DNA of 33,958 bases, taken from the sequence record SRR20825019_1196; one strand, given 5' to 3'. Position 1 is the stretch's first letter, and each line of letters begins with the position of its first letter. A model generated the notes under the pieces. The model worked only from the letters and a program-made list of their open reading frames with translations. It was not told the origin of the DNA and searched no databases. The translations under genes and the position numbers were made by a program. Positions 18,318 through 33,958 of this stretch are shown here, in pieces.

Positions 18318-18320
18318 TGA

Positions 18321-19682: not shown

Positions 19683-19683
19683 T

Positions 19684-19700: not shown

Positions 19701-19784
19701 TTATAATCATAATTCAACATTATATTTATCTTTTCAATGGCATTAAAACCTATCCTGAGGAAAGATAATTCTAAGGGAGGACAC

Positions 19785-20744
19785 ATGAAAATGACGTATT
19801 TAGCCCGTTTGCGCGGTCTTGCGGCCGCAGTCGCCATGATCGCCGGCGCCGGGAGCGCAAGCGCACAATATCCCGAAAGCAGCATCAATCTTATCGTGCC
19901 GTTCGGAGCGGGCGGAACGACGGATGCCGTTGCGAGGATCCTTGGCGCTGAACTCCAAAAGATACTCGACCAGACGGTCGTCGTTCGCAACGAAACCGGC
20001 GCGGCCGGGACGGTGGGCACGGCCAATCTCGCGCGGCAAGCCCCGGACGGCTATACGCTCGGCTATATTCCGATCGGCCCTCTGGCGCTTCAGACCAATA
20101 TGCGCAATCTGCCTTATTCGGTCGATGACTTCAGTTATATCTGCCGCGTGAGCGACGAGCCCAACCTGCTTCTGGTCCAGCGCGACGGCCCGTTTCAGTC
20201 GGTCGAGGATGTCGTCAACCTGGCCCAGGAAAAACCTGGCGGTCTGGTCTATGTCGCCGTGCCGGGCGGCATGCCACATATTTCGATGGCCGGCTTCAAT
20301 CAGGCCTACGGGCTGGACATGAAGCAGATCAGCGGCGACACCGCAACGGCCGCGCGCTATATCGCCGGCGGCGTTGCTCAGTTCCATTCTTCGCCGGTTG
20401 CGGCCACGAACAGCTTCGAGCTGGATCCTGTGGCGGTGTTTGGCAGCGAACGCAGCGAGGCGTTTCCGGACGTCCCGACGTTCAAGGAACTGGGCAAGGA
20501 TTTGGAGTTCTCGACCTGGTTCGGGGTTGTCGGCCCTGCGGGTATGCCCGCTGACGTCGTCGCGAAACTAGAATCGGCCTGTTCCGAGTCCGTTGAAAGC
20601 GCGAACTTCAAGGAGGCTCTCGCAAAACTCGGAACCCCGATCCGCTATCAGGATTCGAAAGCGTTCGAAGCCTTTGTAAAAGGCCAATACGAGAGCCTGG
20701 GAGCCGTCATTGATGCGGTTGACCTCAAAAACGCACAGCAATAG
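19785..20744 (+). CDS. tctC: Tripartite tricarboxylate transporter substrate-binding protein (TctC/Bug)
   Basis: Signal peptide; YPESSINLIVPFGAGGTTD, APDGYTL and PDVPTFKE motifs. GGGAGGA RBS before ATG 19785. Confidence 0.93.
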   Translation: MKMTYLARLRGLAAAVAMIAGAGSASAQYPESSINLIVPFGAGGTTDAVARILGAELQKILDQTVVVRNETGAAGTVGTANLARQAPDGYTLGYIPIGPLALQTNMRNLPYSVDDFSYICRVSDEPNLLLVQRDGPFQSVEDVVNLAQEKPGGLVYVAVPGGMPHISMAGFNQAYGLDMKQISGDTATAARYIAGGVAQFHSSPVAATNSFELDPVAVFGSERSEAFPDVPTFKELGKDLEFSTWFGVVGPAGMPADVVAKLESACSESVESANFKEALAKLGTPIRYQDSKAFEAFVKGQYESLGAVIDAVDLKNAQQ

Positions 20745-20800
20745 GGCATAGGGGCTTCGCGCAACCGCCGTGCAGCCCCCCATAAATCACGGAAATCGCA

Positions 20801-21253
20801 ATGTTGTATCTCGCACGGCTGGCACCGCAACTTTCCGTCATGGCGTTCTGCGTCCTCTTTCTGGTGTTCCTGCCTGCCAGCGATCCAGGCGAATTCGGCG
20901 CTTACACGCTGCCACGGGCGATTTTGTGGATCGTCGTCTGCATCAACGCCGTCGATCTTGCGCGTTGCGCACTGGCCAAAGCGGAGGCCGTATCGACACC
21001 ACCTCAAACCGCCCTGATCGTGCGCGCGGCGAGTGTGATCGCCGTCTTCATCATTGCAGCTGCAATCATCGAAAGCGTTGGTTTTGTCGTTACATCGGCG
21101 CTTCTCTTTCTCGCCTGCGGACGGCTTCTGGGCATCAGGAACTGGTGGGGCTTGGTCTTTGCCTCCATCGCCTTCGCGCTGGCCGCGTGGCTGTTGTTCA
21201 GCTTCGTGATCGACCTTTCGCTTCCGACATCGCCGTTTTCCCGGATTATCTGA
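20801..21253 (+). CDS. tctB: TTT small permease (TctB)
   Basis: 150 aa, 4-5 TM helices, C-terminal LSLP, located between tctC and tctA. Confidence 0.85.
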   Translation: MLYLARLAPQLSVMAFCVLFLVFLPASDPGEFGAYTLPRAILWIVVCINAVDLARCALAKAEAVSTPPQTALIVRAASVIAVFIIAAAIIESVGFVVTSALLFLACGRLLGIRNWWGLVFASIAFALAAWLLFSFVIDLSLPTSPFSRII

Positions 21254-21256
21254 GCC

Positions 21257-22762
21257 ATGGACTTTGCTATTCAGGCCTTTCACCTGGTCTTTTCCTTCAA
21301 TGTTCTGATCCCCATCGTCATCGGAGTGGCCGTTGGTACGGTCGTCGGCGCGCTGCCGGGACTTGGTCCGACGCTCGGCGTCACTCTGGCGCTGCCGTTC
21401 ACTTTCGCGATGGAGCCGACCCCGGCTATCGCCTTGATGCTCGCCATCTACTGCGCATCGACCTATGGCGGCGCAATCGCCGCCATTCTCGTTAATACGC
21501 CTGGAACGGCTGCTTCCGCGGCAACCTGTCTGGACGGTTTTCCCCTTGCACGACGGGGCGGGGCTGATGTGGCGATCGGTTGGGCAACCTATGCCTCGGT
21601 GTTCGGCGGCATCGTGTCAGTTGTGATCCTGATGCTGGCCGCACCCCAGCTAGCCTCCTTTTCATTGCGTTTCGGGCCAGCGCAAACTGCGGCGCTGATC
21701 CTTCTCGCGCTGGCATGTATCTCATCGGTATCGCCCGATAACACCGCGCGGGGCCTGATTGCCGGCCTTGGCGGCATTTTCGCAGCAGGCGTCGGCCAGG
21801 ATCCGATCACTGGCAACCTGCGAATGACGGGCGGCTCTTTCGAATTGTCTGCGGGCCTGTCGCTCATCGCTGTCATCGTCGGAATGTTCGCGTTGTCCGA
21901 GGTGTTTGTTCGCGCCGCCAATGCCGACCCGGCGGTGGACGTCGCCAACCTCAAGACCGGATTCCGGTTTTTGCGGCTGCGCGATATGAAAGGCCGGTGG
22001 GGCAATTTCTTCAGATCGTCGATCGTCGGCACGTTTGTTGGCTCATTGCCGGGCAGCGGCTCGGCCATAGCCTCTTTCATGAGCTACGCGCTGGCGCAGC
22101 GCTGGTCGCCGCGCCGGGAGGAATTCGGAAACGGTGAACCTGACGGTATTGTAGCATCCGAGGCAGCGAATAACGCCGTCACCGGAGGCGCGCTCGTACC
22201 CACCTTGGCGCTGGGCATCCCGGGTGACTCAGTCACGGCGGTGATGATGTCGACTTTCCTCATTCACGGCGTTCAGACCGGTACCCGGCTCTTCGTTGAA
22301 AGCCCGGTGATGGTCTATTCCATGTATGAGTCGCTGTTTATCATCAACCTGATGCTGATCGTGGCCGGCGTTGTTGGCGCGCATGCATTCACACGCCTGC
22401 TCCGCATTCCCGAACCGCTGCTAATGGCTGGCGTGGGCGTTCTTTCGCTGGTCGGCGCCTGGTCGGCGCGGTCCAATCCCTTCGACATCTGGGTCGCCAT
22501 AGGTTTCGGCATTCTCGGCTTTGCCATGCGCCGGACTGGCTATCCAATCGCGCCATTCATCATCGGCTTCGTGCTGGGGAAACCTTTCGAGGAAAACCTG
22601 CGCACGGCGCTAATCCTTGCTGACAACAGCGTTCTGAAACTCGTCTCAGATCCGCTGACCCAGTCGCTTCTGGTTATCGCGGCGCTGTTTCTGGCGCTTC
22701 CTTTCGTCAGCCCCCTTGTCGTTCGAATGATCGACAAACTCTTTGCGGGAGATCAGAAATGA
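21257..22762 (+). CDS. tctA: TTT large permease (TctA)
   Basis: GALPGLG, NTPGT, DGFPLAR, EAANNA and PTLALGIPG motifs. Confidence 0.95.
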   Translation: MDFAIQAFHLVFSFNVLIPIVIGVAVGTVVGALPGLGPTLGVTLALPFTFAMEPTPAIALMLAIYCASTYGGAIAAILVNTPGTAASAATCLDGFPLARRGGADVAIGWATYASVFGGIVSVVILMLAAPQLASFSLRFGPAQTAALILLALACISSVSPDNTARGLIAGLGGIFAAGVGQDPITGNLRMTGGSFELSAGLSLIAVIVGMFALSEVFVRAANADPAVDVANLKTGFRFLRLRDMKGRWGNFFRSSIVGTFVGSLPGSGSAIASFMSYALAQRWSPRREEFGNGEPDGIVASEAANNAVTGGALVPTLALGIPGDSVTAVMMSTFLIHGVQTGTRLFVESPVMVYSMYESLFIINLMLIVAGVVGAHAFTRLLRIPEPLLMAGVGVLSLVGAWSARSNPFDIWVAIGFGILGFAMRRTGYPIAPFIIGFVLGKPFEENLRTALILADNSVLKLVSDPLTQSLLVIAALFLALPFVSPLVVRMIDKLFAGDQK

Positions 22763-24297
22763 GAGCCGTATTCGTCCTGTTCGATACGCTCAACCGACGT
22801 GCGCTTTCCTGTTACGGAGGGAATTCTGCCAACACGCCAAACTTCCAACGCCTGGCCGACCGTTCGGTGACCTTCGACAATCATTATGTCGGCAGCCTTC
22901 CCTGTATGCCGGCAAGACGCGATCTGCAGACCGGCCGCTACAATTTCCTTCATCGGTCCTGGGGTCCGATGGAGCCATTCGATAATTCCTTTCCCGAACT
23001 GCTCGGCCAGCAAAAGGGGGTCTATTGTCATCTGGCCACAGATCATGCGCATTACTGGGAGGATGGCGGCGCGACGTATCATACCCGCTATGACAGTTTC
23101 GAACTGATCCGCGGCCAGGAGGCGGACCAGTGGAAGGGCGTAGTTGCGCCGGATGAGGAAAGGTGGCGCGCCACCTACCATCAAAAACAGCAGGGCTTTT
23201 CACGCCGGCACAAGCACAGGGCCGACATGGTGAACCGGGAGCATCGGAAAACCTATGCCGATTATCCGACCGTGCGTACCTTCGACGCAGGCCTCGAATT
23301 CCTGGAAACCAACCACAAGGCGGACGACTGGTTTCTGCAGATCGAGAGTTTCGACCCGCACGAGCCCTTCACGATCACGGAAGATTTCCGCAAACGCTAC
23401 GCCACCGATTACAAGGGGCCGATCTACGACATGCCGCGATATGGCCGCGTGGACGACACCGACGACGAGATTGCCGAAATCCGGGCCAACTACGCCGCAA
23501 CGCTTGAGCATTGTGACCGTCAGTTGGGACGCCTGCTCGACTATTTCGACGAGCACGACCTTTGGAAAGACACAGCGCTGATCCTGTCCACCGATCATGG
23601 TCTCCTGCTGGGCGAGCACGATCTGTGGGGCAAGCTGATCCTGCCATTCTATAACGAGATTGCTCACACGCCGCTTTTCATCCATCACCCGGATTTTGCG
23701 TCGTCCGCCGGCAAACGTTGCGGCGCGCTGACACAGACAGTCGATCTGATGCCGACATTCCTCGACCTTTGGGGCGTGACGCATCCAGCCGAAGTGCGAG
23801 GGCACTCTCTTCTTCCTTTGCTCGCCAACCCCGATGCGGCGGAGCTGCATGCTTTGCGCGAGGCCGCACTTTTCGGGCAGCACGGGTCTTCCGTCAATGT
23901 CACCGATGGACGATATGTCTATCTGCGCTACCCGACTGATACGCGACATGGCGGCAACCTTTTCCAGTATACGCTGATGCCGACCCACATAAAGTCGCTG
24001 TTCTCGGTCGAAGAGCTGTCTTCAGCCGAATTGGTCAGCCCCTTCGATTTCACGAAGGGGTTGCGCGTGCTGCGGGTTCCCAGCGATGAAAGGTCTCCCT
24101 ACTATCACAGGCAGGGCTCAGGGGTTCAGATCGATTGCGCGACCCGTCTGTTCGACTTGCACTCCGATCCGCTGCAACTCCATCCCATCGATGACGATAA
24201 AGCCGAGGCGCGCATGATCGACCTTCTGATCGGATCAATGAAAGCCAACGATGCGCCATCCGAGCTCTACGACCGCCTGGGACTGGTTCGCGCGTGA
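22759..24297 (+). CDS. Cytoplasmic sulfatase-superfamily hydrolase (Cys-type)
   Basis: LFDTLNR, PCMPARRDLQTGR, FDPHEPF and TDHG motifs. No signal peptide; ATGA overlap with tctA. Confidence 0.92.
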   Translation: MRAVFVLFDTLNRRALSCYGGNSANTPNFQRLADRSVTFDNHYVGSLPCMPARRDLQTGRYNFLHRSWGPMEPFDNSFPELLGQQKGVYCHLATDHAHYWEDGGATYHTRYDSFELIRGQEADQWKGVVAPDEERWRATYHQKQQGFSRRHKHRADMVNREHRKTYADYPTVRTFDAGLEFLETNHKADDWFLQIESFDPHEPFTITEDFRKRYATDYKGPIYDMPRYGRVDDTDDEIAEIRANYAATLEHCDRQLGRLLDYFDEHDLWKDTALILSTDHGLLLGEHDLWGKLILPFYNEIAHTPLFIHHPDFASSAGKRCGALTQTVDLMPTFLDLWGVTHPAEVRGHSLLPLLANPDAAELHALREAALFGQHGSSVNVTDGRYVYLRYPTDTRHGGNLFQYTLMPTHIKSLFSVEELSSAELVSPFDFTKGLRVLRVPSDERSPYYHRQGSGVQIDCATRLFDLHSDPLQLHPIDDDKAEARMIDLLIGSMKANDAPSELYDRLGLVRA

Positions 24298-24371
24298 GAA
24301 CCGTCTTGATGGTCATGGTCAACCGCAAAGCGGCTTCGCCTGAAACCCGAGCTTCCGTGGTTCGGTCGGAC

Positions 24372-24623
24372 GGTACTGTCAAGTTACCGGGCTTCGAACG
24401 AAGGTGCTGGCCTCCGCGGTCGCTTATGCGGCCTGCAGGTGTGCGATTTCATTCCACATCTGCATGGCTGCGGTTCTAAGTTCACGGTGATGGTCGGATG
24501 GAATATCGTGGCGGGGAATATGAAATAGGTTTGCGACCGGATTATGCATGGACGCGAAACGCTGGAGATGTCGGGGCGACTTGAAGCCTTTCATAATTCG
24601 CTCTCGCCGCCGTTGACAGTTTC
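24372..24623 (-). mobile_element. IS6-family remnant: transposase C-terminus plus right inverted repeat
   Basis: Minus-strand RRRERIMKGFKSPRHLQRFASMHNPVANLFHIPRHDIPSDHHRELRTAAMQMWNEIAHLQAA* (stop 24424-24426). IS6-like end GGTACTGTCAAGTT at 24372-24385. Confidence 0.85.
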
Positions 24624-24627
24624 ACAT

Positions 24628-25353
24628 CTATATCGCTTCAACCAAAGCGGAGAAAACATACCCATGACCGCGTTCGGTTTTAATGAATTGAGGGCTGGTA
24701 GGAGTGGGTTCTATTTTGCGCCGCAACCGCAAGATCAGAACGTCGATCGTCCGGTCAAAGATATCATCCCCTGCTCTATGCGTGATCTCAAGAAGCTGGT
24801 CGCGCGAAAGGACACGGCCGTGGCGCTCGACCATGGCATGGAGTAGATCGAACTCAGCGACCGTTAGCGCGATCTGCGTCCCGGCCGGGGCGTTCAACCG
24901 CCGGCGCTCGGTGTCCATGACATATCCGTGGAACCGGTACCCCTTCCTCACCGGCCGCTCATGCGCGAAATCGCCGCGCGCCCTTCTGCGGATCGCCTTC
25001 ACCCTCGCCAGCAACTCGCGGACGCTGAACGGCTTGACTACGTAATCGTCGGCCCCGATTTCCAAGCCCATCACACGGTCCAACTCAGCCCCACGCCCGC
25101 TGAGCATGATGATCGGCACGGAACTGCTGACGCGGATCCTGGCCGCCACGCTAAAACCATCGAGGTCGGGCAGTTGGAGGTCGAGGATGATCAGGTCAAA
25201 TCCGTGATCGGGCGAAAGTTGGCTGAATAGATCCGCCGCGCAGCCAAAGCGTTCCGAATCCATTCCCCCCGTGAGCAGAATGTCGCAGACGACATCGCGA
25301 ATTGCCGGATCATCATCCACAACCGCAACACGAGGTCGTCTTGGCTCGCTCAT
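24628..25353 (-). CDS. OmpR/PhoB-family response regulator
   Basis: VVDDD, LIILDLQLP, GADDYVVKPF and winged helix FDRTIDVLILRLRRKIE...KTERGHGY. Confidence 0.95.
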   Translation of the reverse strand: MSEPRRPRVAVVDDDPAIRDVVCDILLTGGMDSERFGCAADLFSQLSPDHGFDLIILDLQLPDLDGFSVAARIRVSSSVPIIMLSGRGAELDRVMGLEIGADDYVVKPFSVRELLARVKAIRRRARGDFAHERPVRKGYRFHGYVMDTERRRLNAPAGTQIALTVAEFDLLHAMVERHGRVLSRDQLLEITHRAGDDIFDRTIDVLILRLRRKIEPTPTSPQFIKTERGHGYVFSALVEAI

Positions 25354-25384
25354 TGCGGCTATCCTCCATCAACCCGTCCGGCCA

Positions 25385-25413
25385 GTGTCATAAAAATGTC
25401 ATGAAGGCGACAT
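25385..25413 (+). promoter_or_regulatory. PHO-box-like direct repeat
   Basis: gTGTCAT-AAAA-aTGTCAT with 11-bp period (25386, 25397) and a weaker third unit CGACAT at 25408. Confidence 0.6.
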
Positions 25414-25453
25414 CGACGCAAGCCGGTGGTGTCCCGGCAGGCAAGGCGACACG

Positions 25454-25501
25454 TGTGAACAAAGTTACAAGCCAGCTGGCGTTCCTGAAATATCGGGTTC
25501 A
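25454..25501 (+). promoter_or_regulatory. Bipartite regulatory motif, copy 1
   Basis: TGTGAACAaaGTTACA-N15-CTGAAATAtCGGGTTCA; repeated at 33612-33659 on the minus strand. Confidence 0.75.
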
Positions 25502-25591
25502 CAAGCCCCCAGAATACTGGCTAGCTGCGGTCGCCAGGTTTTGGCATTTCAAGGAGCGCGAAGGGCGGAAAATGACCGAGGCGAACGGACC

Positions 25592-26572
25592 ATGAGGGCG
25601 CTGCTTGTAGCCATCAGCTTCATCGTGATGACAGGCGCCGGCGCGAAGGCCAGCGATCTCAGCATCTACTGCGATCTGCCTGCGCGAAACTGCAAGGCCC
25701 TTGTCGATGCATTCACGCAGGAAAACCCGCTCGACGTGGCGGTCTTTCCGAGAAGAACCGGCGCCGAGGCACTGGCAAACAGTGATATCCTGCTCACGAC
25801 GCCCGGCAACGACCGCCCGGAAGACGACAGCATCGCTGCGGTAAAGAATGCCAGCCTTCCCTCCGGACTTCGTGTCTGGGCACGCCGGCCCTTTGAGCAG
25901 TCGCGAGGCCGCTACGTAGGCGTCTATGCCGAGGTCGCCGGTTTCGTCGTCAATACCGATATTCTGCGTCGGCGTCAGTTGCGGGAGCCAGCATGCTGGG
26001 CCGACCTTCTTCGCCCGGAATTCACCTCCGAAATTCGCATGGGAAATCCGACCATATCTGCAACCGCATACCGCGTTCTGGCGAGTCTTGTTCAGATCTT
26101 CGGCGAAGACGCCGCATTCGACTATCTGAAACGGCTGAACACGAACCTGGCGCTAAATGTCGTCTCCGACACATCGGCGGCGGAAGCCGTGGCAGAGGGC
26201 GACGCCGCGATTGCGGTCGTCAACCTCGGAGACGGCATTGCCCTGGCGGCGCGGGGCTACCCCGTTAAGCTGATCGCGCCCTGCGAGGGCACCGGATACG
26301 AGCCGGCCCTGATGGCGATCATGAAGGCGACGCCCCACGCGCAAAATGCGCTTGCATTTTACACCTTTGCGCTGAGTTTGGCCGGCCAGACGGCCGCCGC
26401 GGCTGCGCTCGGATATCCGATGCCCGCAAACAGGGATGCCTCCCTGCCGCCTGAGGCAGCGATCAGCGGTGCAATCCGGCTCATCGATTACGACTTCACC
26501 AGTTTTGACGCGACGGTCGAGCAGAAGCGGCTGACAACTAAATGGGCTGCGCTCGCCGGCCAGTCCTTCTAG
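25592..26572 (+). CDS. AfuA/PgtC-like periplasmic binding protein, probably a sensory partner of the kinase
   Basis: Signal peptide; IYCD...NC, PACWADLL, GEDAAFDYLK, APCEGTGYE and LIDYDF motifs. Ends 12 bp before the kinase gene. Confidence 0.88.
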   Translation: MRALLVAISFIVMTGAGAKASDLSIYCDLPARNCKALVDAFTQENPLDVAVFPRRTGAEALANSDILLTTPGNDRPEDDSIAAVKNASLPSGLRVWARRPFEQSRGRYVGVYAEVAGFVVNTDILRRRQLREPACWADLLRPEFTSEIRMGNPTISATAYRVLASLVQIFGEDAAFDYLKRLNTNLALNVVSDTSAAEAVAEGDAAIAVVNLGDGIALAARGYPVKLIAPCEGTGYEPALMAIMKATPHAQNALAFYTFALSLAGQTAAAAALGYPMPANRDASLPPEAAISGAIRLIDYDFTSFDATVEQKRLTTKWAALAGQSF

Positions 26573-26584
26573 CGGCGGTGACCA

Positions 26585-28411
26585 ATGGGAGTTCATCAGG
26601 ACAGGTCGCAAAATGTTCCGGCTGGCAAAGACCCGAAGCTGACCTCAAAGTCACAGGCCGGGTTGCGACGTCGTCTGCTGTTGACCTCTATCGCTGTTTT
26701 CGCAGCCATCCTGCTGGTCGAAAGTGCGGCACTCGCCAGCCTCGAATATCTCGATGGTCAGCTCTCGCGGCTTCAGGCAGACTCAATTTCCGACAGCCGC
26801 CGCATGCTGGCGATCACGGAAACAACCTCGGATCTCTCCATTGCCGCGCGGCGCTTTCACGAAGTGGCCGACCGCGAAGCCCTGTACCAGGCCGAATTCG
26901 ACCTGCGTGCGCAGATGCGGCGCTTCTCTTCGCAGATCCCGACGCTTGCGCTGTCCGGCACGGCCCCTCCGGCGCCATTTCTCGACAGCGACATCATAGC
27001 GGAGGCAAACCGTCTCGAAGGTATCGTCGAGCATCTGGCTGCGACGGCCGCAGAGGCGATCGATGCCCATGCGGGCATGCGCACCGAAGCGCAGGATCTG
27101 GAACTCATCAGTTCCGAACTTATGCCGGAGGCAACGGCGCGGCCGATGATCGCCGTCGCGCTTACGCTGGCGAGCACAGCTCTGGCATCAGCTGATCGGG
27201 CCAATGTAGAGAACCAGCGCGATGCCTATATCCGCCTGCTGGAGGAGAACGACCGGCCAATGGCGCTCTCCCTTCTGACGTCGCTGTTCGACCGACGTCT
27301 GGCCGTCATCGACGTTGAAAGTCGACAGCGGTTTCTGGTAGCGGCTGCCGAAATGGCGACCCGCGAGATCACCGCGCTCGCCCGCGAATATACCCGCCTC
27401 ATCGACCGGGCCAATCTCGCCCGGCAGGAGGCCACGCGAAGGCTGCTGCTGTTCGGCAAGGTTACGGCCCTTGGCATGGGGCTGATCGCGCTCGCTGCCG
27501 CCTTCGTGGTCGCGAATGTGTTTTTGCGCGGCGCAGTGCATGACCTTGCCGGCATCGCCGCAGCGATGCGCCGACTGGCCGCCGGCGATCCGACAGCGGA
27601 AGCGCCGGGCGGAAGTCGCCGCGACGAAATCGGCGCGCTTGCCGACGCCTTTTCCGTGTTCAAGGCCCAGATGGTCGAACGTGAGGCGATGCAGCGGCGG
27701 CTGACCGAGGCCGAGCGACTTGAGGCGATCGGACGCTTCACCGGTGGTGTCGCCCATGATTTCAACAATGTGCTGACCGTGATCTCTTCCAATCTCCAGC
27801 TCATACACGAGACGACCGATCCCGCCTCGCCCAATGGGCACCGTGTACTCAAGGCGCTCGAAGCGGCTGAGGGAAGTGCTGCCATGGTTCAGCAGTTGCT
27901 GACTTTCGGCCATCGCCGCACGCTCGATCCGGCGCCGACCGATATCGACGCGGTCGTCGCCTCGCTCGTCGATCTTCTGCAGGACAGTTTCGGGCCGCCG
28001 ATCAGTCTGGAAATCATCGATCTAGACGCCGAGACCCGGCCGCTGGTCGCGCTTGTCGATCCGGGCCAACTGGAGAATGCCCTGATCAACCTCCTGTTCA
28101 ATGCACGCGATGCGATTGCCAACACCGGCCGGATAGCGATTGCCACAGGGACAATCGGCGCCGGCGAAATCGTGATACGGGTGGATGATGACGGCGCCGG
28201 CATGTCGCCGGAGGTACTCGCGCATGTTTTCGAGCCGTTCTTCACCACAAAGCCATCCTCGAAGGGCAATGGCCTCGGACTTTCCACCGTCTACGGCTTC
28301 GTCCGTCAGTCGGGCGGCCGGATCGAGCTTCGTTCCGTCGTCGGGTCCGGCACCACGGCGGAGGTCATCCTGCCCCAGTATCCGCGAGCGGGAGCCCCCG
28401 CCATGACGTGA
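26585..28411 (+). CDS. Membrane sensor histidine kinase (periplasmic helical domain, HAMP, HisKA, HATPase)
   Basis: Two TM segments, RRDEIGALA HAMP, GGVAHDFNNVL H-box, NLLFNARDA, DDGAGM, EPFFTTK and GLGLS motifs. Confidence 0.95.
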   Translation: MGVHQDRSQNVPAGKDPKLTSKSQAGLRRRLLLTSIAVFAAILLVESAALASLEYLDGQLSRLQADSISDSRRMLAITETTSDLSIAARRFHEVADREALYQAEFDLRAQMRRFSSQIPTLALSGTAPPAPFLDSDIIAEANRLEGIVEHLAATAAEAIDAHAGMRTEAQDLELISSELMPEATARPMIAVALTLASTALASADRANVENQRDAYIRLLEENDRPMALSLLTSLFDRRLAVIDVESRQRFLVAAAEMATREITALAREYTRLIDRANLARQEATRRLLLFGKVTALGMGLIALAAAFVVANVFLRGAVHDLAGIAAAMRRLAAGDPTAEAPGGSRRDEIGALADAFSVFKAQMVEREAMQRRLTEAERLEAIGRFTGGVAHDFNNVLTVISSNLQLIHETTDPASPNGHRVLKALEAAEGSAAMVQQLLTFGHRRTLDPAPTDIDAVVASLVDLLQDSFGPPISLEIIDLDAETRPLVALVDPGQLENALINLLFNARDAIANTGRIAIATGTIGAGEIVIRVDDDGAGMSPEVLAHVFEPFFTTKPSSKGNGLGLSTVYGFVRQSGGRIELRSVVGSGTTAEVILPQYPRAGAPAMT

Positions 28412-28465
28412 AAGGGCGATCTCTTAAGACGGGCCGGCCTCCATCTTCCCTGCCTTGCATCAAGC

Positions 28466-29437
28466 TCACTGCCTGAGGACGATGATGGTCCTATCATCGA
28501 AAAGCTGCTTGTGGCTCGAACCCTTGACCCCGAAATACCGGCCGGTCTTGAGCGGGTCCTCCTGCTCGATCCGCGCAGCCATCGCCTCCCATGCCGCGAG
28601 CGATACATCTTCCGGATAGTCGAGATATCCGTCGCTGAATATCTCGATCGATTGGACCGACCCAGCGGGCCGTTCGAAGCTCAGCAGCCCGAGCCCCCGT
28701 GTGGTTGTGCCGTTGATGATCGCATAGCCAAGCGGATGATCGGGATCGTTTGCAAAACGGTACTGTCCTTTGGCGATCCCAGCTTTAAGCATCGGAGCGA
28801 CATACTCCAGCAGGCTGTCGTCAAGCCGGCCCCTGAGCTTCTCCGTCGCTTCCGTGATCAGGACAGCACTTTCGTCGGCGGAGATCAGGTCCGGAACGGC
28901 GGTATCGAAACCATGGAAAACGCCGCGGCGCGAACCGGCTTCCAGATCGGTACCATCATTTCGTGCCTTGAGCAGGAAGTAGAGCGCCACTCGGCCGGCT
29001 GACATGATATCATCGACCGGTTTCAGCACCTGAGAGACATCTTCACCATTGATCCGCACGCCGCTGTCGCCGACGAGGGTGAAACGCAGGTTTTCGCCAA
29101 CCGCCTCCACCAGCGCCATCGTGGTCGATGCGCCGACCATGCGGCCCTGCACCTCTGATTCTTTCGCAAGTTTTGTCGCGAGTTCGCCGTTGATGGCGGC
29201 GAGCAGGTCTTCGGTTGACAGCGCGCCGGGCGCATGACGGCTGAACAGCGACGTGAGTGCGGCAGCGGCCGTGAGCGCAGCAAACCGGCCGGAGCCGACA
29301 CCGGCGATTTCCGAGCCGTTGACGTCGGTCGCGCCATCGAACACTGCATAGCAGCGGTCCGGCAGGATTAGCGGAACATCGTCGCCCGGGCGGTCGGAAT
29401 TCAGATATTTGGAAGCGGAAAGGCATTCGATGCGCAT
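28466..29437 (-). CDS. Hypothetical PP2C/PPM-like metal-dependent phosphohydrolase
   Basis: GDD, AVFDGAT, STT, VGDSG, FSDGY and DDRT motifs in PPM order; last gene of the ABC operon. Confidence 0.75.
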   Translation of the reverse strand: MRIECLSASKYLNSDRPGDDVPLILPDRCYAVFDGATDVNGSEIAGVGSGRFAALTAAAALTSLFSRHAPGALSTEDLLAAINGELATKLAKESEVQGRMVGASTTMALVEAVGENLRFTLVGDSGVRINGEDVSQVLKPVDDIMSAGRVALYFLLKARNDGTDLEAGSRRGVFHGFDTAVPDLISADESAVLITEATEKLRGRLDDSLLEYVAPMLKAGIAKGQYRFANDPDHPLGYAIINGTTTRGLGLLSFERPAGSVQSIEIFSDGYLDYPEDVSLAAWEAMAARIEQEDPLKTGRYFGVKGSSHKQLFDDRTIIVLRQ

Positions 29438-29518
29438 GGATATTCCTTTCGCTCCGAACCCGCTGCCAGGCCGGAGCTATTATACTGACGTGCGGGACCC
29501 AGGCCCCGCCCGGAATGA

Positions 29519-31204
29519 TTAGACAAACGCCCCCTCTCGGCTTTCGGAAAGCCTGAACACGATGAATACGCAGATGCCGGAACTGACCAGGAGAATGGTC
29601 GAGAGCGCCGCTGCCAGTCCGAACTCGCCGTCGAGCACGGCACTATAGATCTTGATCGGCATTGTAGCGGTCGCGCCGGTATAGAGCAGCAGCGTAGAAG
29701 ACAGTTCGTTGATCGCGGTGATGAAGCTCATCATCGCGCCGATGATGATGCCGGGGATCATGATCGGAACCGTCACCTTGAGGAAGGCGCGTGCCGGCGA
29801 CGCCCCGAGATTGATCGCGGCCTCCTCGATCGAAGGCTTGATCTGGCGGAGGATCGTCGAGGTCGAACGCACGCCATAGGGCAGCCTGCGGATGAATACC
29901 ACCAGGATGATGATCAGCGCAGTTCCGATGAGATCGACCGGCGGCTTGTTGAAGGTCAGGGCGAACCCGATCGCCATGACCACGCCGGGAACGACATAGG
30001 GAACCATCAGCAGGCTGTCCAGCAGCCCCGAGAGCCAGGTCTCGCGGCGCACGACAATGTAGGACACGAAGGCGCTTGTGATCGTGATCATAGTCACGGC
30101 CGCGAACGCGAAGGTAAACGAATTTCCGACCACATTCGGCAGTTCGTTCCACACCCGCTCATAGCTCGACAGGCCGAATTCTCCGGTGAATACCGGGCCG
30201 TTGGTGGCGAGGATCGAGGTGTAGAACACGACGATCATCGGCAGCGAAGCCATCACGACCACGAAATAGCAGAAGCCGTGAACCATCCAGTTCGCCGGCC
30301 CGGAAAGCTGCTTCGGTTCCGGCAGATTGGTGAGCGCGCCGGCATAGCGCCGCTTGCTCAGAAAATAGCGTTGCAGCACCACAGCGGCCATCGAAATGAC
30401 GATCATCACCACGGAGATCGCGACGGCGATCGACGGCGTTCCGCCCATTTCCGAGGTATACTGGTTATAGGCGATGGTCGACAGAGTCCGAAAATTCCGC
30501 CCGATAATCGCAGGGGTGCCGAAATCGGCGATCGACAACACGAATGCGAGAATGGCGCCGGAACTGACCGCCGGAAACACCAGCGGCAGCGTCACCTTGA
30601 AGAATCGCCCGAGCGGCGAGCAGCCGAGATTGGCAGCGGCCTCCTCGAAGGATCGGTTGATCGAGCGAAGCGCGCCCTCGGTCATAAGATAGACAAAGGG
30701 AAAGAACTTCAGCGTGAACACCAGGATGACGCCGGGCGTGCCGTAGATGGACGGGATATCGAGGCCGAGATCGCGCAATGGCCGGGTGATCCAGCCATTA
30801 TTGCCGAGAAGCAGGATCCAAGAATAGGCGCCGATGAAGGGCGGCGACACCAGCGCCAGAACGGCGACCGTCGAAATCACGCTGCGTCCCTTCACCCGGA
30901 ATCGGGCGACGAAATAGGCGAGCGGAACGCCGATCAGGCAGGCTCCGATCATCCCGCCGAGGCCGACCAGCATCGAATTGCGCAGCGCACCGAGATAGTA
31001 GGGATGGCTGAGCACCTGGGCGTAATTACCGAGTGTGAAGGCGCTGGTTTTCGGATCGATGAAACCGACGACGAAAACCTTGGAGAGCGGCGCGATCAGC
31101 AGGATCGCGATCACGACAAAACAGAGGGTGAAGACGATGTTCCAGAAATTGATCGCCCGGGGCAGGCGCTTGCCGCGGGGTTCGGAGAGCGGAAGATCGG
31201 TCAT
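29519..31204 (-). CDS. ABC transporter fused double permease (FbpB/AfuB-like)
   Basis: 561 aa with two EAA loops (FEEAAANLG, IEEAAINLG), PPFIGAYSW and ADFGTP. Confidence 0.93.
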   Translation of the reverse strand: MTDLPLSEPRGKRLPRAINFWNIVFTLCFVVIAILLIAPLSKVFVVGFIDPKTSAFTLGNYAQVLSHPYYLGALRNSMLVGLGGMIGACLIGVPLAYFVARFRVKGRSVISTVAVLALVSPPFIGAYSWILLLGNNGWITRPLRDLGLDIPSIYGTPGVILVFTLKFFPFVYLMTEGALRSINRSFEEAAANLGCSPLGRFFKVTLPLVFPAVSSGAILAFVLSIADFGTPAIIGRNFRTLSTIAYNQYTSEMGGTPSIAVAISVVMIVISMAAVVLQRYFLSKRRYAGALTNLPEPKQLSGPANWMVHGFCYFVVVMASLPMIVVFYTSILATNGPVFTGEFGLSSYERVWNELPNVVGNSFTFAFAAVTMITITSAFVSYIVVRRETWLSGLLDSLLMVPYVVPGVVMAIGFALTFNKPPVDLIGTALIIILVVFIRRLPYGVRSTSTILRQIKPSIEEAAINLGASPARAFLKVTVPIMIPGIIIGAMMSFITAINELSSTLLLYTGATATMPIKIYSAVLDGEFGLAAALSTILLVSSGICVFIVFRLSESREGAFV

Positions 31205-32268
31205 GACAACAGCCTCCCGTTCTGTGTGTCTTCATAGACCGCAAAATCGGCAAAAGGTAGCGAGACGTCGACGCTGTCACCCGGCCGCAGCTCGATGATT
31301 TCGGCCCTCGGTGCGAGGAGCGCGGTGATTTCCATGTCGCCGGCCTCGACCGCGATCTCAAGCTCACGGCCGATGAACATCGCATGGCGCACCTTTCCGC
31401 TGATCCTGACGGCGTCCCGCCCGCCATCCGCGCCCAGGCGAACCTTTTCCGGGCGAATGGTGGCGACAACAGGACCGCCGGCATGATCGATAGCGCGATC
31501 GAAGCCAGTGCCGGCGACGGTCAGCCGCCCCTCGGAAAAATCGGCATTCATCCGGTTGTTCGAGCCGACGAAGGAGGCAACGAACAGATTGGCGGCGCGG
31601 CTGTAAATCTCCCATGGAGAGGCGACCTGCTGGGCGATGCCGCCATACATCACGCACACATGATCGGAGATCGCCAGCGCCTCCTCTTGGTCGTGGGTCA
31701 CGTAGATGGTAGTGATGCCAAACTCGCGCTGAAGATCGCGGATATCGCGCCGGAGATCGACGCGCAGTTTGGCGTCGAGATTGGAAAGCGGCTCGTCCAT
31801 CAGCAGCACTTTGGGCCGAATGACCAAGGCACGCGCAAGGCCAACACGCTGCTGCTGACCGCCGGAGAGCTGATGCGGCATACGCTCGGCGAGCTGGTCG
31901 AGCTGGACGATATCGAGCATTTCGCGAACGCGCCTGTCCAGCTCATTGCCGCGCACCTTGCGCTGGCGCAGACCGAAGGCAACATTGTCGAACACGCTGA
32001 GATGCGGGAAAACGGCATAGTCCTGGAACACCATTCCGACATCGCGCAGATGAGCGGGCTTGTCCCCGATCGATTCGTCCTCGACATGGATCGTGCCGCT
32101 GTCCTGCTGATGAAACCCCGCAATCGCACGCAAGAGCGTGGTTTTGCCGCAACCGCTTGGGCCCAGAAGGGTGAAAAACGCGCCGGAGGGAATGTCGAGG
32201 GAGATGTTTTCCAGCGCTGTGAAGTCGCCATAGGTCTTCTTCAGATCGGTGATACGTACGCGTGCCAT
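31201..32268 (-). CDS. ABC transporter ATP-binding protein (FbpC/AfuC/PotA-like)
   Basis: GPSGCGKTT, LSGGQQQRV, MDEPLSNLDAKLR and THDQEEA motifs. Confidence 0.95.
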   Translation of the reverse strand: MARVRITDLKKTYGDFTALENISLDIPSGAFFTLLGPSGCGKTTLLRAIAGFHQQDSGTIHVEDESIGDKPAHLRDVGMVFQDYAVFPHLSVFDNVAFGLRQRKVRGNELDRRVREMLDIVQLDQLAERMPHQLSGGQQQRVGLARALVIRPKVLLMDEPLSNLDAKLRVDLRRDIRDLQREFGITTIYVTHDQEEALAISDHVCVMYGGIAQQVASPWEIYSRAANLFVASFVGSNNRMNADFSEGRLTVAGTGFDRAIDHAGGPVVATIRPEKVRLGADGGRDAVRISGKVRHAMFIGRELEIAVEAGDMEITALLAPRAEIIELRPGDSVDVSLPFADFAVYEDTQNGRLLS

Positions 32269-32336
32269 GACCCGTTCCTGAGTTTCTGAATTTTGCGGGA
32301 TATGGAAGGGGCAGCCCGATGCCGCCCCTCAAACGC

Positions 32337-33317
32337 CTATTTCGTCATAATGACTTCGTTCCACTTTTGGAGCGCTTCCGGGCGGTATTCCGAAGCCCAG
32401 TCGATATCGTACTTGATCAGTTTCATGTCGGTGAGCGGCGTCAGCGCGTCGTTGGCGGGAACATCGTCGCGCACCGGCCGACGGCCGATTTCGGCAACGA
32501 TTTCCTGCCCTTCCTTGGAGAGTGCGTAATCCATAAAGGCCTTAGCCCCCTCCTCATTTGCCGGCGTCGCCAGCATCGCCATGCCATCAGCCTGGGCGGT
32601 CGTCCCGTCGGCCGGATAGATCACGTCGACCGGGCCGCCGCCGAACTTGAAGCGCAGGCCGATATCCTCGTTGGCGATGCCGATCCAGGCCTCGCCGTCA
32701 TTGACGAATTTCGGCACGGCGCCGGAGGAATTGGCAAGCTGGGTATTGTCGAGGATGCGGCTGTAGAGATCCCAGCCCTTTTCAAGGCCATATATCTGGA
32801 GAAGCGTGGCGAGTTGAATATAGGCCGACGAGGATTTGTCCAGCCGGGCGATCGAAACCCTGTCCTTGTATTCGGGCTTGGCGAGATCTTCCCAGGTCTT
32901 GGGTCTTTCATCCTCACTCAGTTCGTCGGTGTTGACGACGAAGCTGGTGGCAATCACCGTGAACGGCGTCCACTTGCCCTCAGGACGCACCGCTTCAACG
33001 ATATGATCTGAACCGGCCGGCTGGTAGTCGGAGAAGAGTTCGGGATTGGCTTGCAGGATTTCCCCGCCAACCGACCACAGCACATCCGACGATTCGCGGC
33101 CCTTCTCGGCCTTCAAGCGGTTGATGAGTTCGCCGGAGCCCGCCTTGATCAGTTCAACCTGCATGCCGGACGACGCCTCGAAGCCGGCGACCATCTTGTC
33201 GACAAGCTCCTGCGGCGCCGCCGTGTAAACGATTACCTTGCCGTCCGCGGCGAAAGCTGCCGTCGACGACATCAGACCGAGCGTTGTCACCGCTGCTATA
33301 ATACCTGCAATTTTCAC
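32337..33317 (-). CDS. ABC transporter substrate-binding protein (Fbp/AfuA/2-AEP-binding type)
   Basis: GTG start after AAGGAGGG; signal peptide ending AFA-A; GSGELINRLKAE, PKTWEDL, KSSSAY and YPADGT motifs. Confidence 0.92.
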   Translation of the reverse strand: MKIAGIIAAVTTLGLMSSTAAFAADGKVIVYTAAPQELVDKMVAGFEASSGMQVELIKAGSGELINRLKAEKGRESSDVLWSVGGEILQANPELFSDYQPAGSDHIVEAVRPEGKWTPFTVIATSFVVNTDELSEDERPKTWEDLAKPEYKDRVSIARLDKSSSAYIQLATLLQIYGLEKGWDLYSRILDNTQLANSSGAVPKFVNDGEAWIGIANEDIGLRFKFGGGPVDVIYPADGTTAQADGMAMLATPANEEGAKAFMDYALSKEGQEIVAEIGRRPVRDDVPANDALTPLTDMKLIKYDIDWASEYRPEALQKWNEVIMTK

Positions 33318-33611
33318 TGTCTGCCCTCCTTATTTTTGGCTTTTCTACTCTCAGATACCTGCCGAGTCTCTGGCTTCGGCCGGCGCCCGAACCCGCGACA
33401 TCGAGGGCACGGAATAGTCCGTAGCGGGTAAGAAGAACATGTGGCCATATCGGGCCTCGCCAACAAACCGCGTCAGCCCAACGCCGACCCGTTGCATCCG
33501 AGCCAGATCCTTCTTCTCCCAAGCAACGATGAAATGATTCGGCAAATCCGCGTCTGGCGTTGCGGCAAGCGTATTTCATACGAAGCATTTGAAAACTATC
33601 GAATGCAACGA

Positions 33612-33659
33612 TGAACCCGGTATTTCAGAAAAGAATAGGCATCTGTAACACTGTTCACA
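33612..33659 (-). promoter_or_regulatory. Bipartite regulatory motif, copy 2
   Basis: Minus strand reads TGTGAACAgtGTTACA-N15-CTGAAATAcCGGGTTCA, upstream of the ABC operon. Confidence 0.75.
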
Positions 33660-33837
33660 AACTGCAATGGGGACCAGGTCAGCGGCTGGGAAGCTGACAT
33701 TCCACCATCGGCCCCTTTGCTGCCGATCCGCAGCGTGCCACAAATTTTCTCACCGCAGCCGACATGCGCGTGGATGTGTTCTTCCGAACTTCTGGATCGG
33801 CTCTTGGGTCACAGCACGCTCATTTGAGCGTCCCCTA

Positions 33838-33927
33838 GGAGGCGAGCTTCCGAAGGATCTGGCTTGGCGCGATGCTTCCGGTCGCAATTGTGGCGGCGAT
33901 ACGCAGGATGTCGGGCCAGTTGCGCTC
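33838..33927 (-). mobile_element. Tn3-family transposase internal fragment
   Basis: Minus-strand ERNWPDILRIAATIATGSIAPSQILRKLAS, then a stop; a characteristic Tn3 TnpA segment. Confidence 0.8.
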
Positions 33928-33929
33928 GT

Positions 33930-33958
33930 GTTGAGCCCTTTGTGAGCACGGTGATCGG
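33930..33958 (-). mobile_element. Probable IS6-family transposase fragment running off the window edge
   Basis: Minus-strand DHRAHKGLN resembles the IS6 HKGLNN motif; only 9 codons are visible. Confidence 0.45.

Follow-up and report, generated by a model that had tools for sequence, protein, structure and literature searches.

A candidate binding-protein-assisted sensing and uptake locus that includes a predicted PP2C-fold phosphatase

Described systems and the layout of the locus

The locus reported here was compared with TorT-TorS-TorR, which senses TMAO in E. coli and Vibrio, with HptA-HptS-HptR, which senses glucose-6-phosphate, with the phosphoglycerate-sensing PgtABC and with the sugar-phosphate importer AfuABC. 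The kinase TorS is of the hybrid type, carrying receiver and HPt domains, and PgtA is an NtrC-type regulator. To our knowledge, the AfuABC transporters of Actinobacillus and Citrobacter have no embedded kinase/regulator pair or PP2C gene. Few binding-protein-stimulated kinases are understood, and the part of a 2021 review drawn on here lists about ten of them (PMC8050422). The same part describes TorT as a Peripla_BP_1 protein and the HptS sensor as a dCache domain, and reports that in Staphylococcus aureus the binding protein HptA activates the kinase HptS, after which the regulator HptR induces a phospho-sugar transporter (PMC8050422). AfuA and P5PA were both once annotated as iron binders and were later shown to bind phospho-metabolites. 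According to the excerpts consulted, these are G6P, F6P and S7P for AfuA, in which H205A and E229A each abolish binding (PMC4546632), and PLP for P5PA (PMC8427247).

The window, that is, the whole stretch of DNA analysed (33,958 nt, record SRR20825019_1196), contains the feature under study at 24628..33659. An earlier annotation made from the letters alone (the sequence-only reading) had placed seven genes there, with a regulator gene divergent from a binding protein-kinase pair that converges on an operon of a second binding protein, an ATPase, a permease and a PP2C-like protein. Both the gene content and this orientation were confirmed by coordinates and Pfam domains (Table 1). The HK and PPM genes are convergent with a 54-nt gap. 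The end of sbp1 lies 12 nt from hk, and sbp1 is not accompanied by a separate set of permease and ATPase genes; a related metagenome contig (L139) is arranged likewise. The listed open reading frame of SBP1 opens at a TTG at 25541, and the in-frame ATG at 25592 was preferred because a signal-peptide-like N-terminus follows it and the orthologues are 329-335 aa long. SBP2 starts at a GTG preceded by AAGGAGG.

Table 1. Features of the locus, with positions in the window
Feature	Position	Strand	Domains and remarks
RR, OmpR-family response regulator	24628..25353	-	Pfam Response_reg + Trans_reg_C
Element A, two-part promoter/operator: TGTGAACAAAGTTACA-N15-CTGAAATATCGGGTTCAC	25454..25502	+	90 nt upstream of SBP1 start
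SBP1, periplasmic binding protein of the AfuA family, orphan and remodelled (candidate co-sensor)	25592..26572	+	Pfam SBP_bac_6
HK, histidine kinase	26585..28411	+	Pfam HAMP + HisKA + HATPase_c
PPM, cytoplasmic PP2C-fold phosphatase (predicted), last gene of the ABC operon	28466..29437	-	Pfam PP2C_2
Permease, fused two-domain ABC	29519..31204	-	two BPD_transp_1 stretches
ATPase, ABC with TOBE domain	31201..32268	-	Pfam ABC_tran + TOBE_2
SBP2, transport binding protein of the cassette	32337..33317	-	Pfam SBP_bac_6/8/11
Element B, two-part promoter/operator: TGTGAACAGTGTTACA-N15-CTGAAATACCGGGTTCAT	33611..33659	-	294 nt upstream of SBP2 start

The locus resembles the Tor system in that a binding protein is encoded with the kinase and the regulator belongs to the OmpR family; the periplasmic sensor, all-helical in its model, may form a stacked four-helix bundle as in TorS. 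It differs in that HK has no receiver or HPt domain by Pfam, unlike TorS, that SBP1 is an AfuA/SBP_bac_6 protein whereas TorT is Peripla_BP_1, and that the putative target is an ABC importer instead of a reductase operon. HptA belongs to the same broad family as the binding proteins found here, but the sensor is all-helical in place of the dCache domain of HptS, the putative target is an ABC system and not UhpT, and the SBP1 site is remodelled. The transporter shares with AfuABC the set of a binding protein, a fused permease and a PotA-like ATPase, and AfuA is the nearest solved binding protein for both SBPs, but its His205-Asp206-Glu229 triad is altered in both of them. Finally, RR has a Trans_reg_C (OmpR-type) output, unlike the NtrC-type PgtA. 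A literature search retrieved no paper describing the seven-gene combination or entry 8X1A, in agreement with the sequence-only reading, which had not recognised a characterised system.

Shared promoter element and related loci

A motif upstream of both operons had been noticed in the sequence-only reading, and it proved to be part of a larger, two-part element of 49 nt. The first block, TGTGAACAnnGTTACA, occurs only at 25454-25469(+) and 33644-33659(-), even with two mismatches, in a search that is circular, the pattern having been taken from those very sites. When the upstream regions of both operons were compared without this bias, a second block appeared, CTGAAATAyCGGGTTCA, with 15 of 16 positions matching at the same 15-nt spacing; a match of this quality was reached by 1 of 200 mononucleotide shuffles. 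The two-part element is kept in 11 related loci, namely L139, in the alignment of which elements A and B are conserved islands, and ten others that carry it in the RR-proximal promoter. As a further likeness to the Tor system, (C/T)GTTCA is found within the arms of the element; it forms the core of tor boxes, given in an excerpt of PMC9239176 as CTGTTCATAT and CCGTTCATCC. An Rfam search of 24300-33958 (E <= 0.1) found no RNA family, hence no riboswitch was detected in the 294-nt leader. Matches in a consensus promoter/terminator scan were no more numerous than in shuffles and none lay at the expected places.

The synteny check suggested with the earlier annotation showed that L139 has all seven genes in the same order, at 63-93% protein identity. 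In two further relatives, the SBP1, HK and PPM orthologues share one longest-contig figure each (14034; 106558), which suggests that they sit on one contig in each. RR identity is 84% in L139, 68-73% in L001-L004 and 60-63% in L115-L120. Outside the clade to which the window belongs, the kinase of the loci L001-L004 (type I) is the closest (53-61% identity); these loci lack SBP1, and their kinase gene is immediately upstream of SBP2. Therefore, the kinase family can work without SBP1, and SBP2 may also be a sensing partner. The type II relatives (L115-L120, L131-L133) have the RR homologue, the promoter element, an AfuA-family ABC system and a kinase that is homologous in both its sensor and its core. 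They differ in having a single SBP-permease-ATPase-HK operon with no PPM and no second SBP, and their SBP keeps the AfuA triad intact, unlike SBP1 and SBP2. These loci likewise appear to be uncharacterised. In such comparisons the greedy ORF caller gave spurious antisense ORFs in GC-rich loci, and four gene clusters (c5, c7, c11, c24) were ignored. A nucleotide search of plasmids returned short matches to the ATPase gene only.

The kinase and SBP1 as its candidate co-sensor

HK is a protein of 608 aa with two transmembrane segments, a helical periplasmic sensor of ~235 aa, HAMP, HisKA and HATPase_c, and it is not a hybrid kinase. By NCBIfam its core is VirA-like, below the cut-off, and the best matches of RR (CreB, VirG, TorR and OmpR) are all below their own cut-offs. 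The sensor sequence had no match among solved chains in the PDB. Its model is all-helical (pLDDT 82.8), and the top Foldseek match is the TorS sensor 3I9Y, a weak one (E 8.4e-4, TMq 0.51, TMt 0.63), followed by the McpS HBM domain (2YFA, third match) and TorS-TorT complexes. HBM-like domains such as McpS bind ligands directly, which counts against the binding-protein-assisted reading. A word-based homologue search found at least three close orthologues of the sensor. The domain occurs in 12 of 401 sampled Hyphomicrobiales genomes and lies in or adjoining an AfuA-family ABC operon in 11 of these; in the twelfth (weak match, E 2e-9), an SBP1-like gene is ~1.1 kb off by coordinates.

The nearest solved structures of SBP1 are 8X1A, AfuA 4R72 and P5PA 6WCE, and HptA is absent from the five solved chains matching at E <= 1e-5. 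SBP1 has N-lobe deletions in which the anion-binding segment is lost. In HMMER and MAFFT alignments the AfuA triad reads Gly-Asp-Glu, His205 being replaced by Gly, and Glu229 is also missing in two of the four clade members. By alignment only, the Thr corresponding to AfuA Thr150 is kept and the Ser37 segment is deleted or remodelled. This remodelling falls in segments that are invariant among transport-type members. As the N-lobe anion segment and the essential His are lost, AfuA-style sensing of the same compound by SBP1 is improbable, if SBP1 binds any ligand at all.

SBP1 descends from kinase-linked transport binding proteins. In the tree it is placed among kinase-linked SBPs with a stem branch of 1.68 substitutions per site, and its nine best non-orthologous matches across the 401 genomes coincide exactly with the set of nine kinase-linked SBPs. 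Comparison with the L139 orthologue gave a dN/dS of 0.14, that is, purifying selection.

Co-folding of SBP1 with the periplasmic domain of HK, a check suggested with the earlier annotation, scored 0.78 against 0.02 for the best of three controls. Among solved complexes 51 of 78 attain this mark, and among mismatched pairs 2 of 108 do so. At least 91% of contacts recur between runs, and the partner pLDDT is at least 85. A pass of this kind does not discriminate between members of the family as the partner, and structures of TorS-TorT and HptS-HptA complexes have been solved. The model supports the putative binding of SBP1 to the HK sensor. Of the 25 periplasmic positions that are invariant or nearly so, 6 lie in the predicted HK interface (A2 positions 104-123 and 212-234), namely P104, P108, R116, R220, R222 and A226. 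The predicted-interface residues of SBP1 are conserved in family members without kinase linkage as well; their conservation may instead serve permease docking or folding. The co-transcription of SBP1 with HK and its lack of an own transporter support the three-part sensing logic proposed earlier, and the best fold match of the HK sensor is TorS, a kinase dependent on a binding protein. The earlier interpretation, with the first binding protein as the sensor, is partly supported, with the qualification that AfuA-style sensing of the same compound is unlikely.

The importer cassette, the proposed mechanism and its alternatives

The nearest solved structure of SBP2 is AfuA 4R72 (E 1e-30), and HptA 6LKG matches at 1e-17. 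The AfuA phosphate contacts Ser37 and Thr150 are Ser and Ser in SBP2, a conservative change seen by alignment only, and these two conserved contact residues, whose equivalents are kept throughout the SBP2 clade, suggest that the cargo may be phosphorylated. The AfuA triad reads Glu-Asp-Gln (HMMER and MAFFT alignment), and across the SBP2 clade H-D-E is replaced by E-D-x, with an invariant Glu-Asp and a further Asp. A transport role for SBP2 fits its place in a conserved ABC cassette; the possible additional role as a sensing partner, raised by L001-L004, was not part of the earlier assignment.

PPM matches Pfam PP2C_2 at 25.0 bits against a cut-off of 24. Its model (pLDDT 94.9) has a helical insert of ~90 aa and gave 134 PDB matches at E <= 0.001 in Foldseek, with Stp1, PstP and tPphA on top (E ~1e-10, probability 1.00); TMq is only ~0.45 because of the insert. 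Residues D20, D34-G35, G123-D124, D269-G270 and D314-D315 are invariant in 18 sequences, and we take them to be the metal-binding Asp motifs. An alignment to PstP, which is weak (E 0.028), matches the DG...G and GDS segments.

About 170 PPM loci were found in Alphaproteobacteria and a few other lineages, and 80 were examined. The ABC operon ending in a PP2C-like gene, as first read in the window, turned out to be a conserved module: the SBP2-ATPase-permease-PPM cassette is present in 69 of the 80, usually under ROK, DeoR or RpiR regulators. SBP2 and PPM form a two-gene unit in 23 loci, and the cassette has amino-sugar (nag/aga) genes nearby in 13 of 80. It is widespread among rhizobia, agrobacteria and marine Rhodobacterales as well as Roseibium, Microvirga and Devosia.

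We propose, at about an even chance of being right, that the locus is a binding-protein-assisted two-component system that induces a dedicated ABC importer, with a PPM step. The TorS/HBM-like helical domain of HK would dock an AfuA-family binding protein, here SBP1, and SBP2 may dock too. On signal, HK would phosphorylate RR, which would bind the element GTGAACAnnnTTACA, followed after ~17 nt by GAAAT and GTTCAC, overlapping both promoters, and turn on sbp1-hk (positive feedback) and sbp2-atpase-permease-ppm. The importer would take up an organophosphate, most likely also with an amine, e.g., an amino-sugar phosphate, and from its synteny the cytoplasmic PP2C-fold enzyme would then remove the phosphate. 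We infer the signal, the cargo and the direction of regulation in this scheme.

SBP1 could instead be a second orphan binding protein that feeds another substrate to the same permease, with HK sensing its ligand directly or via SBP2 or the transporter. L001-L004, in which hk is directly upstream of sbp2 without SBP1, speak for this, as do the direct ligand binding of HBM-type domains and the C-lobe surfaces that SBP1 keeps in common with the whole transport family. However, SBP1 is co-transcribed with hk and not with the transporter, its ligand site is remodelled where transport-type members are invariant, its stem branch is long and its co-fold with the sensor passes the controls, and we consider this explanation rather improbable. 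PPM acting as a regulatory protein phosphatase, e.g., on the transporter, a regulator or another phosphoprotein, rather than on the cargo, is doubtful but should be taken more seriously. The solved structures close to PPM are all protein Ser/Thr phosphatases (Stp1, PstP, tPphA, PPM1A and others). Yet no conserved protein kinase gene was found among the neighbour clusters present in at least 4 of the 80 loci, PPM stays with the ABC genes under four regulator types, and the 36 positions invariant across 18 sequences, with identity to the window protein down to 31%, may reflect one fixed substrate pocket.

It is very unlikely that the ABC genes encode nothing other than a usual transporter of ferric iron or 2-aminoethylphosphonate, with HK/RR in a known iron or phosphonate regulon. 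SBP1-like proteins carry the JGI name 'iron(III) transport system substrate-binding protein', and the best NCBIfam models are PhnS2, PhnT2 and PhnU2, but all Phn scores are far below the curated cut-offs: SBP2 161.8 and SBP1 97.4 against 392.75 (PhnS2), the ATPase 369.5 bits against 457.7 (PhnT2) and the permease 195.4 bits against 593.25 (PhnU2). By score, iron-binding SBPs rank below AfuA and P5PA as matches to SBP2, and hardly any of them match SBP1. Both SBPs are nearest to the two former 'iron binders' now known to bind phosphorylated metabolites, in support of the earlier interpretation, and sugar regulators and nag/aga genes are what surrounds the system in other genomes.

The proposed system would pair an AfuA-family protein with a TorS-like helical sensor, a new pairing and a compact testable case, and the locus appears to capture a transport protein turning into a signalling subunit. 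A joint generalisation, in which the PP2C-fold family are cargo-dedicated small-molecule phosphatases and TorS-like kinases have obligatory AfuA-family co-sensors, is put forward only tentatively and is less likely than the proposal for this locus. If true, a cargo-dedicated PP2C would extend the PPM superfamily to a new class of substrates, perhaps amino-sugar phosphates, and in the Martelella-like lineage SBP1 would have abandoned transport together with its ancestral ligand site and would now serve signalling alone, either as a sensor of new specificity or as a ligand-blind mimic that sets the response of HK to the transport protein SBP2. Identification of the cargo, probably a phosphorylated amino sugar, would define a new nutrient route in plant-associated and marine bacteria and would reveal whether metabolites can be substrates of a PP2C-fold enzyme. 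We know of no PP2C that hydrolyses sugar phosphates, and a literature search for a PP2C acting on sugar phosphates found none. A tblastn search of plasmids with PPM gave two records, neither with usable annotation, and in the ESM Atlas PPM falls in 'hypothetical protein' clusters only, some with PP2C_2. An inositol-monophosphatase-family gene is present in the analogous type II locus L120.

Gene content and conservation of the locus

The domain matches placed all seven genes as the sequence-only reading had laid them out (table below). The gene of the OmpR-type response regulator (RR) is transcribed divergently from sbp1-hk, which encodes an AfuA-like binding protein (SBP1) and a HAMP histidine kinase (HK), with 12 nt from the end of SBP1 to the start of HK. 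Convergent to this pair is the operon of an ABC importer with its own binding protein (SBP2) and a PP2C-fold protein (PPM). The SBP1 start is placed at the in-frame ATG 25592, with a signal-peptide-like sequence after it; the SBP1 orthologues have 329–335 residues. The start codon of SBP2 is GTG, with AAGGAGG ahead of it. None of the NCBIfam hits in the locus reached its curated cut-off, and the top models below it were PhnS2, PhnT2 and PhnU2 for the ABC parts, a VirA-like model for the HK core, and CreB, VirG, TorR and OmpR for RR.

Coordinates of the seven genes and of the two copies of the upstream element
Feature	Position	Strand	Domain matches or orientation
RR	24628-25353	-	Response_reg + Trans_reg_C (OmpR type)
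Two-part element	25454-25502	+	towards downstream operon (sbp1-hk)
SBP1	25592-26572	+	SBP_bac_6
HK	26585-28411	+	HAMP + HisKA + HATPase_c
PPM	28466-29437	-	PP2C_2, 25.0 bits (cut-off 24)
Permease	29519-31204	-	two BPD_transp_1 halves
ATPase	31201-32268	-	ABC_tran + TOBE_2
SBP2	32337-33317	-	SBP_bac_6/8/11
Two-part element	33611-33659	-	towards downstream operon (SBP2 operon)

On an orthologous metagenome contig, L139, all seven genes are present with order and orientation kept. The identity to L139 was 84% for RR, 63% for SBP1, 81% for HK, 78% for PPM, 93% for the permease, 84% for the ATPase and 88% for SBP2. Pairwise dN/dS ranged from 0.05 to 0.16 (SBP1 0.14), values that are rough because dS is near saturation, and the dN of SBP1 (0.27) was the highest, against 0.04–0.14 for the other six genes. 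The low ratio together with the highest dN indicates that SBP1 is being maintained, though with a faster rate of change than the genes around it. The closest homologues of PPM, HK and SBP1 were found in Martelella-like organisms.

A two-part element upstream of both operons

The upstream motif that had been noticed in both operons proved to be real and larger than its first block. With two mismatches tolerated, TGTGAACAnnGTTACA has its sole window sites at 25454-25469(+) and 33644-33659(-), a count that is circular because the pattern was derived from those two sites. When the two upstream regions were compared without a preset pattern, the best match was a different sequence, CTGAAATAyCGGGTTCA (15/16 positions), which in each region follows the first block after a gap of exactly 15 nt; a 15/16 match was equalled in only one of 200 mononucleotide shuffles. 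Since the second block stands at this fixed spacing, the unit is a 49-nt two-part element. In the alignments with L139, it appears as a nearly invariant island, the intergenic DNA around it being 70–77% identical. The same layout (GTGAACAnnnTTACA, about 17 nt, GAAAT, then GTTCAC) was observed at the regulator-proximal promoter of 10 further loci with homologous regulators and kinases; the versions in L119 and L120 are degenerate. TTACA and the GAAAT located 16–17 nt further on could be a -35/-10 pair overlapped by the regulator site. Both arms of the element contain (C/T)GTTCA, in opposite orientations. In the available part of PMC9239176, the TorR boxes CTGTTCATAT and CCGTTCATCC have this same core, which is a resemblance rather than a test. 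We consider it quite likely that one regulator, RR, governs both operons.

Two other intergenic blocks are conserved in L139. One, TGTCATGAAG(G/C)CGA, is at about 25397-25415 between RR and SBP1, on the side of the main element that faces RR, and could be the RR's own promoter or a second operator. The other, CAAATGCTTCG, is within the 294-nt leader between the element and the SBP2 start (33318-33610), for which Rfam matched no family. A 144-aa ORF overlapping this leader (33154-33588, minus strand) is probably spurious.

The kinase sensor domain and the two binding proteins

HK has about 235 periplasmic residues (roughly 53-287) between two hydrophobic segments, a region with no Pfam match and no PDB sequence match. 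The sensor model, made from ten homologues, was all helix (pLDDT 82.8), and its top Foldseek match was a modest one to the V. parahaemolyticus TorS sensor (3I9Y; E 8.4e-4, TMq 0.51, TMt 0.63), followed by the HBM domain of McpS and three TorS-TorT complexes. The domain is rare, being found in at least 3 of 401 sampled Alphaproteobacteria and at least 12 of 401 sampled Hyphomicrobiales, which are minimum counts as five candidates were scored per genome. Nine of the 12 Hyphomicrobiales genomes have RR divergent from SBP-permease-ATPase-HK (type II), and two have RR divergent from HK-SBP2-ATPase-permease-PPM (type I); in the last, a weak match (E 2e-9), the coordinates put an SBP1-like gene about 1.1 kb away. 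The window and L139 represent a third arrangement, in which the type I genes are joined by an additional SBP ahead of the kinase. About 60–90 central residues are missing from the periplasmic domain of four type II loci (L115-L118), while L119, L120 and the window have the long form; the two conserved helices that make up the predicted interface with the SBP occur in the short and the long form alike. In L120, an inositol-monophosphatase-family gene (10081-10872, minus strand; Pfam E 2e-56) lies between the regulator and the SBP, and the promoter element comes directly after its stop codon.

Nearest to both SBPs were AfuA (4R72-75), 8X1A and P5PA (6WCE). According to the available text of PMC4546632, AfuA binds G6P, F6P and S7P, with Ser37 and Thr150 contacting the phosphate and His205, Asp206 and Glu229 essential for the sugar. 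The residues at these positions differ among the groups (table below). The SBP1 clade has deletions of 8 and 3 residues, which take out the ...AE..NPxGDVWWGGTGD... segment, an invariant feature of transport-type members, and its best-conserved stretches, on C-lobe surfaces, are RVWARRPFEQS, EPACWADLLR, LVQIFGEDAAFDY, PVKLIAPCEGTG and RLIDYDF. The nine top non-orthologous matches of SBP1 in the 401-genome search were the nine type II kinase-linked SBPs. In the maximum-likelihood tree, the SBP1 clade, itself supported at 100/100, falls among these proteins. Its stem measures 1.68 substitutions per site, compared with about 0.05–0.2 for the other internal branches; the great length of the SBP2 outgroup branch makes the root of this tree uncertain.

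Residues of the binding protein groups at AfuA positions
Group	Ser37	Thr150	His205	Asp206	Glu229
Type II SBPs		Thr	His	Asp	Glu
SBP1 clade	segment deleted/remodelled	Thr	Gly	Asp	Glu in 2/4, Ala/Thr in 2/4
SBP2 clade	Ser (Ala in two members)	Ser	Glu (invariant)	Asp (invariant)	variable; invariant Asp two residues on

It had been proposed that SBP1 senses and SBP2 transports. Co-folding of mature SBP1 with the HK periplasmic domain passed its controls, which fits docking of such a protein. The three runs scored 0.78, 0.70 and 0.82, against 0.02 for the best of three controls. Among solved complexes 51 of 78 attained that mark, and among mismatched pairs 2 of 108; contact agreement was at least 91% and partner pLDDT at least 85, and the tool made no use of the homologue alignments built in the analysis. 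The predicted kinase interface, HK 131-150 and 239-261 (104-123 and 212-234 in the co-folded domain), contains P104, P108, R116, R220, R222 and A226 in domain numbering. They account for 6 of the 25 periplasmic positions that are invariant, or nearly so, across type I and type II kinases, where simple arithmetic gives about 2.7 by chance. The predicted SBP1 interface (95-102, 134-142, 168-181, 231-233, 294-299) corresponds to conserved C-lobe stretches. The same residues are conserved also in family members without kinase linkage, and the co-fold pass is blind to which member binds. Complexes of TorS-TorT and HptS-HptA have been solved; in none of the solved complexes known to us is a helical sensor paired with a protein of the AfuA family. 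From these models, it is rather probable that SBP1 docks onto the kinase. Because its ligand site is remodelled and the type I relatives do not need it, SBP1 may detect a new signal, or it may act independently of ligand, as a partner of SBP2 or as its competitor for a shared docking site.

The ABC-phosphatase cassette and its proposed role

PPM has no signal peptide. A word-indexed search gave 87 homologues, few of them named and nearly all of those as 'hypothetical'. Across 18 sequences, with identity to the window protein down to 31%, 36 positions are invariant, including D20, D34-G35, G123-D124, D269-G270 and D314-D315. The model (pLDDT 94.9) matched the bacterial PP2C phosphatases Stp1, PstP and tPphA (E about 1e-10, probability 1.00), with a TMq of about 0.45 because a helical insert (about residues 140-230) takes the place of the flap region. 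The profile match to PDB sequences was marginal (PstP, E 0.028), with the DG...G, GTT and GDS motifs aligned. From these comparisons, PPM very probably has metal-dependent phosphatase activity.

A profile scan of genome contigs with the PPM alignment gave 170 loci with a relative, and the counts that follow refer to the best 80 of the 170. In 69 of the 80, PPM has SBP2-, ATPase- and permease-like genes no more than 5.5 kb away. Eight of the 11 remaining loci are cut by contig ends (L008, L009, L046, L053, L059, L062, L063, L074), L057 has SBP2 and ATPase with the permease under the detection threshold, and L007 and L012 have no cassette despite flanking sequence. The order SBP2-ATPase-permease-PPM was found in 44 of the 69, an SBP2-PPM pair divergent from ATPase-permease in 23, and another order in two. 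A divergent NagC/Mlc-like ROK protein or ROK kinase accompanies 29 loci, a DeoR (AgaR/GlpR-like) regulator 11 and an RpiR (HexR/MurR-like) regulator five. The two-component-controlled cassette is a minority version, with the HK and RR homologues in L001-L004 only (Pleomorphomonas, Consotaella and one MAG). AgaS-family/NagB-II SIS, NagA-like, NagB-like or GatZ/KbaZ-like genes lie within 10 kb in 13 loci, and L006 and L022 additionally have a NagK-like kinase and more SIS proteins; the NCBIfam scores of these neighbours are below cut-off. The varied regulators and the sugar and amino-sugar neighbours suggest that the cassette is a mobile functional unit tied to sugar, often amino-sugar, metabolism. 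Four loci (L031, L032, L038, L042; cluster c28) encode, downstream of PPM and between the NagB-like and GatZ-like genes, a conserved protein about 250 aa long. Its sole match is a marginal one to NUDIX (E 4e-4), and such a hydrolase, if real, could indicate a nucleotide-sugar or sugar-1-phosphate intermediate.

An action of PPM on the cargo is favoured by its close association with SBP2 and the permease whichever of four regulator types is present, by the lack of a conserved kinase gene near the PPM loci (best 80 of 170), and by the presence of an inositol-monophosphatase-family gene in L120, the analogous locus of type II. From these gene neighbourhoods, we suggest tentatively that PPM might dephosphorylate the cargo. 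We lean slightly towards a phosphorylated cargo, for which an amino-sugar phosphate is a candidate of lower probability. In the mechanism that we favour, an extracellular organophosphate would be sensed at the HK periplasmic domain via a docked AfuA-family protein, and phosphorylated RR would bind the two-part element. Both operons would then be switched on, so that the sensor is reinforced and the importer and phosphatase are made.

TorTSR and HptARS have the same logic, and ChvE-VirA/VirG shows a looser likeness; the HK core and RR are VirA/VirG-like by NCBIfam, below cut-off. The locus belongs to none of these systems. TorS is a hybrid kinase whereas HK is not, the SBP here is not TorT-like, and the sensor, unlike that of HptARS, is not dCache. 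The His205-Asp206-Glu229 triad of AfuA is found in neither SBP1 nor SBP2, the ABC parts score below the PhnS2/T2/U2 cut-offs, and RR is not NtrC-type, unlike the Pgt regulator. The pairing of an AfuA-family SBP with such a kinase is absent from the available part of a review of SBP-stimulated receptors (PMC8050422). The sequence-only reading did not recognise the combination as a characterised system, and we likewise found no description of it in the literature outside subscription journals and supplements. The more novel aspects, if confirmed, would be an uncharacterised, widespread ABC-PP2C cassette and a transport protein turned signalling subunit, SBP1.

Elsewhere in the window, 1-4439 has a MerR-family regulator flanked by two heavy-metal P-type ATPase genes, one cut at the window edge; the regulator lies inside a long ORF that is probably over-extended. 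The region 13308-24297, with a HAD hydrolase, two sulfatase genes, a TPR protein, a LysR regulator and a TctC/TctA tripartite tricarboxylate transporter, reads together with a Na/Pi cotransporter (4607-6271) like an accessory nutrient-scavenging island. A second uptake locus at 6477-13052 comprises a DeoR regulator, a UgpC-like ATPase, SBP_bac_8, two permeases, a calcineurin-like metallophosphoesterase and an inositol-monophosphatase-family gene. These genes suggest import of a phosphodiester or a sugar phosphate by a system equipped with hydrolases of its own, the same import-then-dephosphorylate theme as proposed for the PPM locus.
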